Made by a program: the position numbers and the translations under genes. The notes below the pieces were generated by a model that saw nothing but the letters and a program-made list of their open reading frames with translations, was not told where the DNA came from and did no database searches. This document shows positions 1 through 6,214 of a stretch of DNA of 64,000 nt, one piece after another. The DNA comes from Candidatus Cloacimonadales bacterium (GTDB taxonomy: Bacteria; Cloacimonadota; Cloacimonadia; Cloacimonadales; JAIOQZ01): the NCBI GenBank assembly GCA_963662655.2, contig CAXXTU010000002.1, positions 3,104,001 to 3,168,000 on the forward strand, in the 5' to 3' direction. How positions within the stretch are numbered: position 1 is the stretch's first letter; every line of letters begins with the position of its first letter.

Positions 1-1746
1 CCGGTTGCGCGGGATGCCGTGCCTGTACGGATCGATGGCCATCGCATGAAGACTCAATCGGACCATGCAAACTCGACGAGTCTTGCCGGATCGCAGGAGC
101 GATCTGCGCCGCGGAACGATCGTACTTTGCACTACGCTGTATACCGTGTGGAGGAAGGGGATGAGGATGATCCGAGTAACTGGGAATACCTTAACGAAGA
201 CGAATTCCCTTATTCTGACACAACGTATGTAGATACGGACTGGCCAGTGTATGGGATTTTCTGCTGGGCTGTGATCGCGTATGATAACGGGATTATGAGT
301 GAGTGCGGTTTCTCTAATTATATTCCCTATACACCGTCATATTATGTCGAGATTAATGTAACAACCAATTCCGGCGACAGCCCGATCGACGCTTTCTACC
401 GGTTCGAGAATCATGATGGAGACGAGAATCACCTCTACACCGGTCAGGTTCCTGCAAGTGGAACGGTTTTCCTGCCGGCGGTCTGGTATGGCATGTATGA
501 TTTAACTGTTCGCAAGCCGGGCTTTGATGATTACGAAGCGCTCAATCTGATCGTCGATGATCCCGAGAATGGCAGCGAATTCGATGTGGAGCTTATCGAA
601 ACGTTGCTGCCTGTCGAGTATGGTTATTATGAGGTCGATGGTGGTATGCTGATGATCTGGTGGAACCCGCCGGATCCATATAGCGGAGAGGAATTTACGG
701 AGGGATTCGAGGAAGGCGACCTCCTTGAAGGCTGGATTGCTACGGGCGTTTCGACCGACGAAAGTCAAACCGAGCCTTCCTACTTCCATGTCACCGATTA
801 CGAAGGTGATACATTCAGTCCTTTGGGATCGTATCATGCAGGGCTCTGGTGGTCGGAAGAGCATCAGGACGAATGGCTGATTACCCCTGAGTTTATATGC
901 GATTCCGATACCTACATCAACTGGAAATGCGTTGCGTACGAAGGCTCAACGCATAACGACCACTATTATTTGAAAGTCTCCACCAACGGCGGTTCGAGCT
1001 GGGACACTCTCTGGGATGCATCGGAGCTGAGTGGCGGATGGAACTACTACGATTATGCGTATGATGTAAGTCTCGGCGAATACAATGAACAGAACATCAA
1101 AGTCGCATGGCACTGTGTGGATGGCGATTCGAATGATGGATTATGGTATAGCTTCTTCGTGGACAACATTACCGTTAGCAATGGCAGAAACATCATCCAT
1201 TTCGATGCAAAGGACCTGGCGCAAGAAACTCGATCGGGCAAGGCGAAGAAAGCGGCGAGCGCCTCGCGTGACCGCCATCTGCTCGGTTATCGCCTCACCA
1301 GAAACAATCTCCCACTTGAAGACCTCTGGGAAGAGAATGAGTATATCGACGAAGACGGATTCCCGGGATGCGTTTATCATGTTTATGCCGTGTATTCCAC
1401 AGGGGAATCAGAGCCCTTTATTATCATAATACCCCATGGAACTAACGACGACGATGCCGTGCAAATCTCAACCAAGCTCATGGGCAATTGCCCCAATCCC
1501 TTCAACCCTGAGACGCGCATCGATTATTCGCTGTCCACGCCGGGTATGGTCTCGCTCGATATCTACAACACGAAGGGGCAACTCGTGAAAAGGCTGGAGA
1601 ATACGCGTCGCGATGCCGGTAAATACAGCGTGATATGGCATGGCGATAACGATTCGGGTAAGTGCGTCGCTTCAGGAATCTACTTCTGCAATCTGAAGGT
1701 GGATGGAAAACAGCTCGGTATGATCAAGATGGCTTTATTGAAGTAG
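1..1746 (+). CDS. Secreted/surface protein (5'-truncated): carboxypeptidase-regulatory-like domain, cleaved-adhesin (choice-of-anchor J)-like domain, C-terminal FlgD-Ig/T9SS-CTD-like domain
   Basis: Frame open from window start. 'QDEWLITP...YYLKVSTNGG..W...VDNI' is cleaved-adhesin-like. C-terminus 'NCPNPFNPETRI...IYNTKGQLVK...W.G.NDSGK.VASGIYF...KMALLK'. Confidence 0.8.
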   Translation, partial: PVARDAVPVRIDGHRMKTQSDHANSTSLAGSQERSAPRNDRTLHYAVYRVEEGDEDDPSNWEYLNEDEFPYSDTTYVDTDWPVYGIFCWAVIAYDNGIMSECGFSNYIPYTPSYYVEINVTTNSGDSPIDAFYRFENHDGDENHLYTGQVPASGTVFLPAVWYGMYDLTVRKPGFDDYEALNLIVDDPENGSEFDVELIETLLPVEYGYYEVDGGMLMIWWNPPDPYSGEEFTEGFEEGDLLEGWIATGVSTDESQTEPSYFHVTDYEGDTFSPLGSYHAGLWWSEEHQDEWLITPEFICDSDTYINWKCVAYEGSTHNDHYYLKVSTNGGSSWDTLWDASELSGGWNYYDYAYDVSLGEYNEQNIKVAWHCVDGDSNDGLWYSFFVDNITVSNGRNIIHFDAKDLAQETRSGKAKKAASASRDRHLLGYRLTRNNLPLEDLWEENEYIDEDGFPGCVYHVYAVYSTGESEPFIIIIPHGTNDDDAVQISTKLMGNCPNPFNPETRIDYSLSTPGMVSLDIYNTKGQLVKRLENTRRDAGKYSVIWHGDNDSGKCVASGIYFCNLKVDGKQLGMIKMALLK

Positions 1747-1754
1747 CTGCCCGA

Positions 1755-1938
1755 GAGTCGTGAGCAGGTTCGTTTGATCTGGCGCGAAGACGTGGTGTTA
1801 TGCATCCTATTTTCGGCTTTGCGAAGCGAAGCGAAAACATGAGCGTTGTGATTTCAAACAATGAAATCATGTTAGCGGATAATCAGGTGCATTATATCCA
1901 CGTAGGAGCGGCAGGATCGGACGAAGATGCCACGACGG
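1755..1938 (-). repeat. Family A structured intergenic repeat, full-length diverged copy in reverse orientation
   Basis: Reverse complement aligns with 43200-43387 and 46706-46893 (GGCATCTTCG, GTGGATATA, ACATGATTTC, AAAGCCGAAAAT, CTGCTC blocks). Confidence 0.85.
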
Positions 1939-1974
1939 AAAGCCAATGGCTGTCTCCCTTGAATCCGTGTCTCA

Positions 1975-4188
1975 TTATGATTGCTTGAACTTCTTGAGCT
2001 TCCGGCAGAGCGTGCTTTCCGTCAGACCCAATAACTTCGCGGCGTTTTTCTGCGATTGATTGGTGCTTTCCAGCGCAGCAAAAATCGTTCTCCGCTCGAC
2101 GTCCTCCAGATTGAACGTACCGAAGTCCGTTGCATCTTGTTTGCGCTCGGCCTCTTGCAGATCAGGCAATGATTGGGCCGTGAGGTTGTTGGAGTTCTCC
2201 AGAATCATGCTCCTCTCAACGATATTCTTGAGCTCCCTGATGTTTCCCGGGAATTTGTACTGACGCAGAGCAGCGATGTACGATTCGTCAATGCCTACGT
2301 TCCTCTTGTTCAAGACCTTTGACATCTCGAAAACGAAATGCTCGATCAACCGGTCGAGGTCTTCCATCCTCTCGCGCAGCGGCGGAATCGTTATATGAAT
2401 GGCATTGATTCGGTGCAGCAAATCGAGCCTGAACTGATTTTGCAAGATCAACTCATTGAGGTCTTTATTCGTCGATGCAACGATTCGCACATCGACTTTT
2501 ATTGACTTGTCGCTGCCGACCGGCGTGAGTTTCCCAGATTCGATCACACGCAGGAGTTTGGACTGAATTTCCACGGGCATATCCCCGATTTCATCCAGGT
2601 ATAGCGTCCCTCCGTTAGCCTGCTCGAAGAATCCTGCTTTATTGTAAACTGCACCGGTAAAAGCCCCTTCCACATGACCGAAAAACTCGCTCTCGGCCAG
2701 GGATGACGTTATTGCGCTGCAATTGACGGTTACAAGCCGCTGGTCCTTTCTTTCACTATTGAAGTGTATCAGGCGGGACAGAATCTCCTTGCCTGTTCCC
2801 GATTCTCCTGTGATGAGGACGTTGATATTGTTGATCTTCGATGCCTTTTTCGCCATATCCACGGCGTACCGAAGCTTCTTGCTGTTTCCAATCAACTGAT
2901 GCTTGATGCTCTTCTGTAAATTCTGCTCCAGAAGTCCTTTGATTCGCTCTCGCCGGAGGATGCTCTCATTGAACGTGTCGTAGAAATCCTGATTCTGAAC
3001 CTGCAATTGCTTCTTGTAGTACTGGCGCTGCTGCGTGATCAAATCGTCCAGGACATCGCAGGCTTTTTCGTACTCTTTCTTATTCATATAGTAGTACGCA
3101 AGCAGGTTCTGCGCTTTGATGTACATTTCATCTAGATTATTCTTCTTGAGGTAGTTGGCATTTTCTTCAATTTCCTGCTTCATACCTTCCGAGAATTGTC
3201 CGTTCATCAGTTTATAGTACAGGATGTTGTTTCGCACAAGCCGCTGCTGAAACTCGTCGTTCAGTTCGCAGGAAATCTCGTAGGCTTTCTGGAAGCTCTC
3301 GATTGCCAGATCGTTCTTCTCGAGTTTCCCATAGATGAGCCCGAGATTGTTGTATATTTTCTTTATTGTCTGCTTGTTGGCTGTCTTGCCCAGTAGTTCC
3401 AATGCCTTCAGGCTGCATTGCTCCGCGAGATCAAAATCCCCCGTGCTTCGGTAGCACAACGACAGATTGGAGTATGCCAATCCTTGCTCCGTGAACATTT
3501 CGGGATTGTTTGCAAGCTCGATCAATTCCTCGAACACGGATATTGCCTCGGGAAGTTCCCCAAAGTTCTTGAGGATCAAACCATAGTCGTTCAGGGGCGA
3601 GAAAAGGTAAATATCAATGCCTATCTCTTTGAAATAGGTAATTGCCTTGACCAGGCTCTCCTTGGCATCGAGATAAAAACCTTGACGCAAATTCAACTCC
3701 CCGAGACCGAAAAGGCTGAAGGCGGTAATTTTCTTGTCCTGATGCTTGCTTCCCAGTGAAAGACAGCGGAGAAATTCCTTCTCGCCTTCCTCGTACATGC
3801 GATTGATCATGTAGGAATAGCCCAGGAAATAGTAAGCCAACAAGTAGCCATCCGGATCGTGCTTCTCGAAAAGTCGCACTGATTCTTCAATAAATGACAG
3901 CCCGGCTTTGTAATCCCCTGCGATGTTGTGGATTTTGCTGATTATCGCAACAACGTATGCCTCGATCGACTTCCAGTCTTCCTTTTCCGCAGCCCTTCTC
4001 AAGCTGTGGAGCTTGATCAGGCATTCCTTCGCGGTGCCCGAGTGTCCCCTCAGTTGCTGTTCCAGCGAATCAACAACGATCTTTTCCGCCTCGCTCAGGC
4101 TTTGCTTCTTCAATAAGTCAATCTGCGATCGATTAATGATCGGCTCACCGGCTATAGTGTATAGTTTTGTAAGGATTTCCCGTATCAT
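1975..4188 (-). CDS. Sigma-54-dependent activator (bEBP) with N-terminal TPR repeats and Fis-type HTH
   Basis: GESGTGKE Walker A, intact GAFTGA, LYLDEIG Walker B, FPGNIRELKN, C-terminal HTH. TPRs such as 'YSNLSLCYRSTGDFDLA' and 'YNNLGLIYGKLEKNDLA'. Start moved to the ATG at 4188. Confidence 0.93.
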   Translation of the reverse strand: MIREILTKLYTIAGEPIINRSQIDLLKKQSLSEAEKIVVDSLEQQLRGHSGTAKECLIKLHSLRRAAEKEDWKSIEAYVVAIISKIHNIAGDYKAGLSFIEESVRLFEKHDPDGYLLAYYFLGYSYMINRMYEEGEKEFLRCLSLGSKHQDKKITAFSLFGLGELNLRQGFYLDAKESLVKAITYFKEIGIDIYLFSPLNDYGLILKNFGELPEAISVFEELIELANNPEMFTEQGLAYSNLSLCYRSTGDFDLAEQCSLKALELLGKTANKQTIKKIYNNLGLIYGKLEKNDLAIESFQKAYEISCELNDEFQQRLVRNNILYYKLMNGQFSEGMKQEIEENANYLKKNNLDEMYIKAQNLLAYYYMNKKEYEKACDVLDDLITQQRQYYKKQLQVQNQDFYDTFNESILRRERIKGLLEQNLQKSIKHQLIGNSKKLRYAVDMAKKASKINNINVLITGESGTGKEILSRLIHFNSERKDQRLVTVNCSAITSSLAESEFFGHVEGAFTGAVYNKAGFFEQANGGTLYLDEIGDMPVEIQSKLLRVIESGKLTPVGSDKSIKVDVRIVASTNKDLNELILQNQFRLDLLHRINAIHITIPPLRERMEDLDRLIEHFVFEMSKVLNKRNVGIDESYIAALRQYKFPGNIRELKNIVERSMILENSNNLTAQSLPDLQEAERKQDATDFGTFNLEDVERRTIFAALESTNQSQKNAAKLLGLTESTLCRKLKKFKQS

Positions 4189-4235
4189 TACACCCCCAGT
4201 TTGGGCAATCATCCACATCGCGTTTCATTTTGTCA

Positions 4236-4260
4236 ATTGCATTAGTGCAATAATTGCACT
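4236..4260. promoter_or_regulatory. Overlapping palindromes (ATTGCA-TTAG-TGCAAT and AGTGCAAT-A-ATTGCACT); candidate operator/UAS
   Basis: Perfect inverted repeat at 4244-4260 between divergent genes, next to the bEBP gene. Confidence 0.45.
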
Positions 4261-4399
4261 GGCGCAATCATTGATGCATGTCAGCTATGAGAGGAGGGTA
4301 TGCGCTACTGTGTTGATACGCAAAAAGTTGTGTCTTTAAACGAATAGACAAAATGCCTTTGGCATAAAAATCCCATATACATGCCCGAGAGGTTTGGCC

Positions 4400-4603
4400 A
4401 TGGAAATTATTAGCATAAGCGATATATTCATCGTTGATCGCGAAAACTTGAAAGCGGTTGGGTTTACCGTCGCATACTCGAATGGACGCTTCATCAACGA
4501 AGTCGAGTTTTACGACGACAACAATCAGGACAACGCATTCTCGGTAATCATCGAGAAACACAACGAAATTCTCGATGTGATGGGGGAAGCTCATCCGCTG
4601 TAA
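4400..4603 (+). CDS. Small acidic hypothetical protein (67 aa)
   Basis: GAGAGG RBS before the ATG at 4400; divergent from the bEBP; protein-like composition. Confidence 0.6.
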   Translation: MEIISISDIFIVDRENLKAVGFTVAYSNGRFINEVEFYDDNNQDNAFSVIIEKHNEILDVMGEAHPL

Positions 4604-4687
4604 GTCTATCCGAAGCATATCGGAAATAGCCTTACAGCGATTATTTTGAATGATAAGTACTTGACGATTCAAAAAGACAATCATTTT

Positions 4688-4709
4688 TCTGGACAACATT
4701 TTTACCATC
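4688..4709 (+). repeat. Left copy of the imperfect direct repeat bounding the AT-rich islet
   Basis: TCTGGACAACATTTTTACCATC versus TCTGGACAACCTTTTTCCATC at 6194-6214. Confidence 0.65.
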
Positions 4710-4841
4710 TCTTCCTTTGGGTTCTAGGTCATATAGCTATACGCAATATCATGTGAAGCTTTTTCTTAATAAACATAAAAAGATTTGATAACTTATCACA
4801 TGCTGTTTTAATAATATCTAAGGCATTTATAGAGAGGAATA

Positions 4842-5462
4842 ATGGAAAAGCTACGCTGGCAATATGTTAAGGATATCACTTCAATTGCTGTGTTTTCTGT
4901 GGGAATAATATATTTTCTCGACTCAACCTTCGGAAAACCTGTTCCAAGATATTTATATTCTTTGATAATATTCCTTGCAATATGGTTATACAACAAATGT
5001 CTCTGGAAAATTGTATCTCCAAGACAGAATTTTTCAGGAAAGTGGTGGGGTTATACAAACTACACTTGTCTTCAAAGACACGTTGTTAAAACAGAATCTG
5101 AATTGCCTACTACAAGGCAACATGATATTGCGATTAATCAGTCCCCGTTTGAAATTAGGATTGAATCTTCAGAAGGAGCTGGGATGGTTTACTGGAAGTC
5201 TGAGTCAATGCAATTAGAAGGGAACACAATAAAAATGTCTTATCTTGTTACACGAAAACAGGATGATATTCAATTGGGTTTCCCAAAGATCACTAAAGGA
5301 ATTGAAGAACTTGAGGTTGTAGAAATAAATTTCTGGGGAATGCCAACAAGAATGAAAGGGACATTTCATCATGCAGCTTTGGATCAATGCAATTTGTACA
5401 GTGGAGAAACCGAGTATTTCAAGAAAAGGAAGAAAAATGCGATTCAGAAGGAGCCAAAATAA
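4842..5462 (+). CDS. Cap15-like (SMODS-associated 2TM beta-strand-rich) membrane effector
   Basis: Two N-terminal hydrophobic helices, then 'LYNKCLWK....NFSGKWWG', 'IAINQSPFEIRI', 'SES', 'MSY', 'MKGTF' and 'SGETEYFKK', matching the Cap15 pattern. AGAGG RBS; AT-rich. Confidence 0.7.
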   Translation: MEKLRWQYVKDITSIAVFSVGIIYFLDSTFGKPVPRYLYSLIIFLAIWLYNKCLWKIVSPRQNFSGKWWGYTNYTCLQRHVVKTESELPTTRQHDIAINQSPFEIRIESSEGAGMVYWKSESMQLEGNTIKMSYLVTRKQDDIQLGFPKITKGIEELEVVEINFWGMPTRMKGTFHHAALDQCNLYSGETEYFKKRKKNAIQKEPK

Positions 5463-6181
5463 TGGCTGATATTGGAGTTAATCGAGTGATATTGGTAGGG
5501 GCTGGATGTCCTTTAGCAAACTCAATTGCTAAAACTTTATATGGACATGCTGAAATATATGGAATATCTACGAAGGATTTTTCGAATACGTATTACAGCA
5601 AGATAGATATTTTTAATTTTCTTGACGAATCTATTGCAAAAGAACGATTTAATGAAATCACAGAAAGTGTTGAAAGTTTTGTTATAATAACATGCACTGG
5701 AAAATTTCCTTTAAGAAAAAAACTGTCTGAGTATACATGTAAAGACCAAGTTGAAACCTTTGAGTCGAATATTCTTGGTTTCACAATTCCTTACAGATCA
5801 GTAGTAGAAAACGCAAGGAAGGCAAAAAAGGCTCTGTTTATGGTATTTGGGTCTGTTTCTCAATCCTACAAATACCCCAAGCTATCTATTTTCACAGCGA
5901 TGAAAGATGCGCTAAAAACTATCGTTCATACTGCATCTCACGAAGAGTCAAGTAATGATATATGTTTTTGTTTTCTAAATCTTTCTACTCTTGATCAAGA
6001 AAAAGAACAGGCATTTACGAAACTGACTTCGGATAAGTATTTGCCTTGTTCTGTTGTTGCCCAAAATATTCATTCTTTGTTTCTTGGCTTTGATAAACTG
6101 CCATTTTACACGGAGCAAAACAATTATATTCACTCGGATGATTACTACAGTATGGGCTACTTCAGTAGGATTCCAGACTAG
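5462..6181 (+). CDS. Atypical short-chain dehydrogenase/reductase (Rossmann)-like protein
   Basis: 'VILVGAGCPLANSIA' is a degenerate glycine motif. 'ETFESNILG' and 'FGSVS....YPKLSIFTAMK' follow, with FxxxK in place of YxxxK. TAATG overlap with the upstream gene. Confidence 0.7.
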   Translation: MADIGVNRVILVGAGCPLANSIAKTLYGHAEIYGISTKDFSNTYYSKIDIFNFLDESIAKERFNEITESVESFVIITCTGKFPLRKKLSEYTCKDQVETFESNILGFTIPYRSVVENARKAKKALFMVFGSVSQSYKYPKLSIFTAMKDALKTIVHTASHEESSNDICFCFLNLSTLDQEKEQAFTKLTSDKYLPCSVVAQNIHSLFLGFDKLPFYTEQNNYIHSDDYYSMGYFSRIPD

Positions 6182-6193
6182 TCTTTGCTTTTC

Positions 6194-6214
6194 TCTGGAC
6201 AACCTTTTTCCATC
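6194..6214 (+). repeat. Right copy of the direct repeat bounding the AT-rich islet
   Basis: See 4688-4709; lies 12 bp after the SDR stop. Confidence 0.65.

Follow-up and report, generated by a model that had tools for sequence, protein, structure and literature searches.

A Cap15-like membrane effector paired with a short-chain dehydrogenase/reductase-fold protein, a candidate cyclase-free phage-defence module

A cassette of two overlapping genes, found in a 64-kb stretch of the genome of a Candidatus Cloacimonadales bacterium (contig CAXXTU010000002.1; the whole stretch is referred to as the window), encodes a Cap15-like membrane protein (gene 1) followed by a protein with the short-chain dehydrogenase/reductase (SDR) fold (gene 2), and this pairing is likely a new variant of cyclic-nucleotide-type phage defence. 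The cassette is of foreign origin and was acquired horizontally. A function in defence is proposed because of the genomic context and by analogy, and with modest confidence the cassette is regarded as a phage-defence module of the abortive-infection type that would lack a cyclase and in which a Cap15-type effector would be governed by an SDR-fold controller.

Cap15 is a member of the S-2TMbeta effectors, a family reportedly defined by Burroughs et al. in 2015, for which the known partners are the CD-NTases (nucleotidyltransferases similar to cGAS and DncV) of CBASS (antiphage systems that signal by cyclic oligonucleotides), the mCpol proteins of Panoptes and the minimal diadenylate cyclases of PanDA. 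If the proposal is correct, the SDR pairing would be the first case found of an S-2TMbeta partner other than a nucleotide synthase, and would give S-2TMbeta effectors, across about 200 protein clusters, a class of sensor new to them and perhaps another messenger chemistry as well. A first-pass annotation of this DNA had called the pairing one not known to be described, and this view is supported: the pairing is absent from PADLOC 2.0.0, in which no model matches the SDR partner, and no paper was found that ties a Cap15-type effector, or phage defence, to an SDR partner in a literature search whose scope excluded supplements and the S-2TMbeta-defining paper. The questions raised are which ligand the barrel binds and whether a redox-cofactor-binding fold can act as an infection sensor. 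Its small size of two genes in 1.5 kb, the roughly 199 clusters related to it and its evident handles for point mutation (Phe144, Lys148, the glycine loop and the C-terminal tail) make the module directly testable.

The conserved pair and its two proteins

Gene 1 is followed by gene 2 on the same strand, the two overlapping or separated by a short gap, at five of the six loci with readable context, a count that excludes the contexts of homologues P0003-P0008, P0011 and P0013-P0016. Besides the window and a second copy in the same genome, the pair occurs at L001, L024 and L025, and is therefore conserved in other genomes and contigs, as the first-pass annotation had anticipated. Across the 10 locus pairs, the more alike two loci are in gene 1, the more alike they tend to be in gene 2, and by identity two clades are distinguished, clade A with the window and L001 and clade B with the second own-genome copy, L024 and L025. 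The genome under study carries one copy of the pair from each clade, and these two copies are only distantly similar (26-32% identity for gene 1 and 27% for gene 2). One of the clade B loci, L025, is a compact defence island that includes a type I restriction-modification methylase and S subunit; along its 7933 bases the order is N6_Mtase, Methylase_S, a 209-aa open reading frame (ORF) together with KwaB (Kiwa), the pair, a SymE toxin gene and an EcoRI-type methylase. An AT-rich island that exceeds 8 kb has the second own-genome copy at its edge. At none of the five loci is the pair joined by additional pathway genes.

The two transmembrane helices, the WK...NFSGKWWG pattern and the beta-barrel that had been read from gene 1 at the first pass were all recovered. 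LWK occupies residues 54-56 and NFSGKWWG residues 63-70; hydropathy windows above 1.5 begin at residues 8-12 and 40-41, in agreement with two N-terminal transmembrane helices; and the AlphaFold2 model obtained from an 8-sequence alignment (predicted local distance difference test, pLDDT, 78.4; predicted template-modelling score, pTM, 0.71) displays helices at residues 2-30 and 36-58 and, from there on, a set of eight strands that lie between residues 66 and 193. When this model was compared with 48,161 representative chains by means of VIA-align, the first rank was taken by 7n34_A, the cyclic-dinucleotide receptor Cap15 of Yersinia aleksiciae (Z 13.0, root-mean-square deviation 3.5, 103 of 108 residues aligned at 15% identity). 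At the profile level, the gene 1 product (P0001) gave two weak matches in PADLOC, to models named 'Effector' with the description '2TM' (E 4.1e-4 and 5.1e-3). The same type of model was matched by four of the eight close members of the gene 1 family and, taking at least one model at E<=0.001 over the union of the listed rows, by 37 of the 126 wider members (best E 7.3e-12). Among the ESM Atlas neighbours of P0001 there are clusters with PF18153 (Cap15_CD_rec) in 25% and 96% of their members, which is to be taken as a lead only. The earlier description of gene 1 as Cap15-like is thus upheld by the rank of the fold and the PADLOC 2TM profiles, and not by the Pfam family Cap15_CD_rec, which was not passed.

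A profile of the gene 1 family retrieved 199 clusters at E<=0.001 from 1.84 billion representatives (134 of them at <=1e-10 and 17 at <=1e-30), and the majority of the 150 listed have lengths of 190-270 aa; an alignment query was needed to find homologues, as a word-index search with P0001 retrieved P0001 alone. The sixth and most distant locus with readable context was reached by this family profile as well. Here (genome G344) a 221-aa relative (E 8.8e-9) starts 2 bases downstream of a 301-aa ORF with a SMODS match over the Pfam cut-off, so that a CD-NTase stands instead of the SDR, of which none was detected within 16 kb. This locus is an ordinary, canonical CBASS operon of a CD-NTase and a 2TM effector. 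Judging from these profile relationships, the gene 1 family is read as a separate and unnamed branch of the S-2TMbeta/Cap15 superfamily that would lie outside the Pfam family.

The assignment of gene 2 to a Rossmann/SDR fold, with the motifs GAGCPLA (residues 13-19) and FTAMK (residues 144-148), was corroborated by motifs, profile and model. The protein itself (P0002) scores 17.1 bits against PF00106 (adh_short), under the gathering threshold of 26.6 bits, and is matched weakly by SDR models of NCBIfam (best 9.5e-5). The clade B partners P0010, P0164 and P0165 pass adh_short with 49.3, 53 and 56.6 bits, which places the gene 2 family as a whole in the SDR superfamily. The family profile retrieved 120 PDB sequences at E<=0.01, and all 60 listed are SDR-type enzymes. 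The structural model (pLDDT 83, pTM 0.85) gave 500 or more PDB matches with Foldseek at E<=0.001, the best listed rows all being SDRs (for instance 8sby, TM 0.76, and 3svt, TM 0.78), with classical members such as EntA and 11beta-HSD1 matched at E about 1e-11 and TM up to 0.78. A different kind of Rossmannoid sensor, of SLOG or CARF type, was also considered for gene 2 and rejected, as clade B passes adh_short and the best rows listed by the fold search are all SDRs.

With the classical SDRs (PF00106) gene 2 shares the Rossmann-type fold and the Lys of YxxxK; it departs from them at the catalytic Tyr, where all 11 partners have Phe, and, in the clade of the window, by a GAGCPLA-like glycine loop and a score under the adh_short cut-off. 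The profile alignment to PDB SDRs sets this Phe on the catalytic Tyr position. All 11 partners retain the Lys that comes four residues later, and a Tyr-Pro pair located 5-6 residues upstream of the Phe is conserved among them. The glycine loops of clade B read GASSDIG, GATSELA or GSVNSEIG, nearer to the classical TGxxxGIG. A C-terminal tail, (Y/F)YxxGY(Y/F)xRxP, closes each of the 11 proteins, the comparison being confined to these partners. The invariant change from Tyr to Phe with the Lys kept suggests a cofactor binder that would not perform the ordinary hydride chemistry. The term 'catalytically degenerate', which had been applied to gene 2 earlier, refers to the Phe at the Tyr site, the degeneracy as such being deduced from that one residue.

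The cassette consists of two genes only, and the lack of a cyclase observed within the window at the first pass was extended to the genome, of which the assembly is 98.95% complete: no SMODS match, the mark of a CD-NTase, was obtained at E<=0.001 and no match to mCpol (PF18182) was found, a diadenylate cyclase not having been searched for genome-wide. In the genome that contains L001 (G232), a SMODS gene occurs on another contig. With respect to TIR proteins, whose absence from the window had also been pointed out, the genome has a single TIR_2 match about 415 kb from the window. This match (56.8 bits) falls in a 485-aa open frame and is some 390-415 kb away from either copy of the pair.

Foreign origin and insertion point of the cassette

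The foreign origin of the cassette follows from its low guanine-plus-cytosine (GC) content, its presence in one of 232 genomes, the synteny that resumes at 6190 and the flanking direct repeat. The two AT-rich genes joined by TAATG that had been reported at the first pass are present as described: in this motif, at 5459-5463, the gene 1 stop codon overlaps the gene 2 ATG, and gene 1 has a GC content of 0.359 and gene 2 one of 0.343, compared with 0.516 for the whole 64-kb window. The lowest-GC stretch of 1486 bp lies on the cassette (0.341; 626 sliding windows, 5th percentile 0.454, median 0.52). The surroundings had been called a GC-rich region, which is correct in relation to the cassette only, since the flanks, at 0.45-0.57, are moderately GC-rich.

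The gene 1 family is present in 1 of the 232 genomes of the phylum to which the window belongs, namely in its own genome, and in none of the three same-genus genomes. In a 401-genome sample of the phylum of G232, the gene 2 family was found in one genome and the gene 1 family in two. A first metagenome scan with gene 2 patterns retrieved none.

Similarity by blastn to the two same-genus genomes G117 and G115 begins at 6190, 9 bases past the stop of gene 2, together with QueH. To the left, positions 1-4850 of the window have no syntenic counterpart in G117 or G115, in which only paralogous pieces of the sigma-54 activator and a dispersed repeat are matched, and therefore the insert is defined by its right boundary and the direct repeat only. 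The features of the cassette and of the loci compared with it are collected in Table 1. The likeness of the two repeat copies extends for a few more bases with one indel, as read from both stretches, and the exact matches of the repeat pattern in the genome are these two only. The repeats around the 1.5-kb insert look like a duplicated target or attachment site. No recombinase gene is contained in the insert, and no convincing flanking repeats were seen around the second own-genome copy or in L001. A scan for sigma-70-type promoters, which did not extend to other promoter types, gave no plus-strand site upstream of gene 1. A functional link between the cassette and QueH was also considered and rejected, as synteny shows that QueH is an old neighbour of the insertion point.

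Table 1. Coordinates of the cassette, of the other loci with the gene pair and of neighbouring features. Positions refer to the window unless another contig is named.
Feature	Location	Strand	Description
Gene 1	4842..5462	+	206 aa (P0001); candidate Cap15/OptE-like membrane effector
Gene 2	5462..6181	+	239 aa (P0002); SDR-fold protein with FTAMK, GAGCPLA and the family-specific C-terminal tail YYxxGYFxRIP
Direct repeat, left copy (TTTTTCTGGACAACATTTTT)	4684..4703	+	Bound of the cassette; 18/20 identical to 6190-6209, spacing 1506
AT-rich leader	4704..4841	+	GC about 0.32-0.35; presumed carrier of the promoter
Direct repeat, right copy	6190..6209	+	Corresponds to a motif conserved upstream of QueH in same-genus genomes G117 and G115; synteny resumes here
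Second own-genome pair	L004 7523-8131 and 8134-8865; G000:C2:2299523-2300865		Diverged copy
Pair locus L001			Deltaproteobacteria metagenome-assembled genome (MAG) contig, from genome G232
Pair loci L024, L025			Metagenome contigs
Defence island	L025 1-7933		Includes the L025 pair
Sigma-54 activator	1975-4218	-	Left neighbour of the cassette region
Intervening region	4219-4683		Between sigma-54 activator and left repeat
ORF, 69 aa	4394..4603	+	In the intervening region
ORF, 146 aa	4268..4708	-	In the intervening region
Dispersed repeat	1808-1884 (and 1885-1930)		In the spacer that separates the sigma-54 activator from the 19..1746 gene
PPDK_N-nucleotidyltransferase fusion	L004 3871-7059	+	1062 aa; directly upstream of the second own-genome copy
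Large protein	L004 8965-13923	-	1652 aa; by the second own-genome copy
IrrE/M78 peptidase-domain protein	L004 13988-15163	-	391 aa
TIR_2 match	G000:C2:2689366-2689779	-	Only TIR_2 match of the genome

Proposed mode of action, known systems and alternative explanations

Cap15 is switched on by a cyclic nucleotide, whereas OptE of Panoptes and PanE of PanDA are kept inactive by a cyclic nucleotide that is made constitutively, and fire once a phage sponge protein removes it, according to two reports (PMC12657218; bioRxiv 10.64898/2026.08.10.743972). Panoptes (OptS/OptE) and PanDA (PanS/PanE) are, like the present cassette, operons of two genes, and in them a protein that is not a CD-NTase controls the Cap15-like effector, as is proposed here; they differ in that their partner is an upstream nucleotide synthase (mCpol or a minimal diadenylate cyclase), while here it is a downstream SDR. 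Both systems show that S-2TMbeta effectors have been combined with new partners and can work with an inverted signalling logic. With Cap15 itself (type I CBASS S-2TMbeta; PF18153 and PF23471, Cap15_TM; 7n34), gene 1 shares a length of about 200 aa, two N-terminal helices and a minimal eight-stranded barrel, and the two are further related by 7n34_A as top structural match, by the matches of the family to 2TM effector profiles and by the distant relative located behind a CD-NTase. It differs from Cap15 in staying below the PF18153 threshold and in having no PDB sequence match, and the cassette differs from CBASS in that no CD-NTase lies beside it or in the genome, the partner of gene 1 being the downstream SDR-fold protein.

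In the proposed mechanism, the product of gene 1, with its two membrane helices and small ligand-binding barrel, is predicted to damage the inner membrane once switched on. The product of gene 2, as an SDR-fold protein predicted to bind NAD(P)(H), would, as suggested at the first pass, fill the position of the nucleotide cyclase in CBASS, Panoptes and PanDA and would act as sensor or regulator, the effector being held off until infection alters the ligand state of gene 2. In the version that is preferred, gene 2 would read NAD(P)(H) or a related nucleotide, and a changed state upon infection would free the effector. This control may be exerted through a small molecule, if the SDR makes or consumes the ligand of the barrel, or through direct contact; both were considered, and a complex prediction for the gene 1 barrel (residues 59-206) and the SDR, which scored 0.00 and returned 'no answer', speaks neither for nor against binding. 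That an SDR-fold protein, and not the product of a cyclase, drives a Cap15-type effector, either as a reader of NAD(P)(H) or as the maker or remover of a non-cyclic NAD(P)-linked signal, is put forward tentatively, as a possibility that is less likely than not. Atypical non-catalytic SDRs, such as NmrA and HSCARG, act as NAD(P)(H) sensors, and gene 2 may resemble these.

A number of results weigh against a defence module led by a Cap15-type effector. Regarding the kinship of gene 1, generic or designed eight-stranded barrels tie with Cap15 in the VIA-align comparison (Z 12.8 and 12.0), so that the fold match is not specific on its own and shows fold, not kinship. The Foldseek check proposed at the first pass returned SDRs for gene 2, as expected, whereas for gene 1 the PDB list consisted of lipocalins and generic barrels, none of which reached E<=0.001, and the gene 1 family profile had no match among PDB sequences at E<=10. 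P0001 has no match in Pfam or NCBIfam, Cap15_CD_rec included at E<=1; the own-genome paralogue of gene 1 reaches 19.2 bits with PF18153, under the gathering threshold of 31.2 bits; and this model is touched weakly by 2 of 147 relatives (E 1e-3 and 8e-3), its cut-off being passed by none. The 'Effector 2TM' models of PADLOC are presumably part of its CBASS set, an attribution of ours and not an output of the tool. As to gene 2, the catalytic Ser position is not invariant among the partners and Y138, conserved six residues upstream of the Phe, might take over catalysis, for which reasons the inactivity of gene 2 remains an inference. Concerning the context, a clear defence island surrounds the pair at only one of the five loci, the window copy being situated between a sigma-54 activator and QueH and that of L001 beside an oligopeptide ABC transporter. 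Finally, scans of viral contigs with the gene 2 family, the close gene 1 family and clade B of gene 1 found no relative, and neither did tblastn searches with P0001 and P0002 against plasmids or with P0018 against plasmids and phage records.

Among the alternatives, the one that survives best, itself unlikely, is a metabolic pair with no part in immunity, in which a membrane-anchored ligand-binding barrel and a working reductase would act on a hydrophobic or membrane compound such as a lipid, a quinone, a pigment or a xenobiotic. Small eight-stranded barrels do bind hydrophobic ligands, the Foldseek list of gene 1 is composed of lipocalins and similar barrels and that of VIA-align includes avidins and lipocalins, gene 2 has the full-length classical SDR fold, and the contexts of the window and L001 are not defence islands. 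Against this reading stand the Phe at the catalytic Tyr position in all 11 partners, the profile link to CBASS 2TM effectors and the distant relative behind a CD-NTase, the sporadic and foreign distribution, the defence island of L025, and the five loci at which the pair is accompanied by no other pathway genes.

An addiction module of the toxin-antitoxin type is less probable still. Gene 1 would then be a membrane toxin, neutralized through direct binding by an SDR-fold antitoxin, and the islet would be stabilized without phage sensing. A compact, overlapping two-gene cassette in foreign DNA bounded by direct repeats would be in keeping with this, as would the two diverged copies in one genome, the SymE toxin gene beside the L025 copy and the family-specific C-terminal tail of gene 2, through which the two proteins might touch. 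A protein of about 240 aa with the SDR fold, and with a cofactor loop apparently kept in clade B (GASSDIG-type), would nevertheless be an unusual antitoxin, and a toxin-first order is, to our knowledge, less common in type II modules; in addition, such a module overlaps with abortive-infection defence and is a rival only in part. Very improbable is the reading of gene 1 as an orphan effector of CBASS type that responds to a nucleotide signal from elsewhere, in trans or from a phage, with the SDR as a passenger. In its favour, the SMODS gene on another contig of G232 and the frequent coupling of Panoptes-type systems to CBASS in the same genome (PMC12657218) may be invoked; against it stand an own genome with two copies of the pair and no SMODS or mCpol match, and an SDR partner that accompanies gene 1 at five of five loci in the family proper, the two having diverged in parallel.

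Neighbouring genes and minor observations

The neighbours of the second own-genome copy on L004 include three further proteins, as located in Table 1. Directly upstream lies a fusion of PPDK_N (pyruvate phosphate dikinase ATP-binding) with a nucleotidyltransferase, the C-terminal nucleotidyltransferase part of which matches the PADLOC candidate system PDC-S09 (E 6e-8). The 1652-aa protein by the pair has no Pfam or PADLOC match, and the 391-aa protein with the IrrE/M78 peptidase domain is matched by the PADLOC models capP and RmrA at E about 6e-7.

The sigma-54 activator of the window carries a TPR region at its N terminus, and not a receiver or CARF domain; its AAA+/HTH part matches RtcR_PspF2 of PADLOC (E 1.5e-100), a match that reflects the shared activator core. 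The region between this gene and the left repeat has a GC content of 0.415 and no counterpart in relatives, and neither of its two ORFs has a family match. Upstream of the activator, the spacer contains a dispersed repeat of about 72 bp, which has dozens of copies at 77-88% identity in the same-genus genomes G115 and G117, some of them in tandem with a period of about 83-92 bp.

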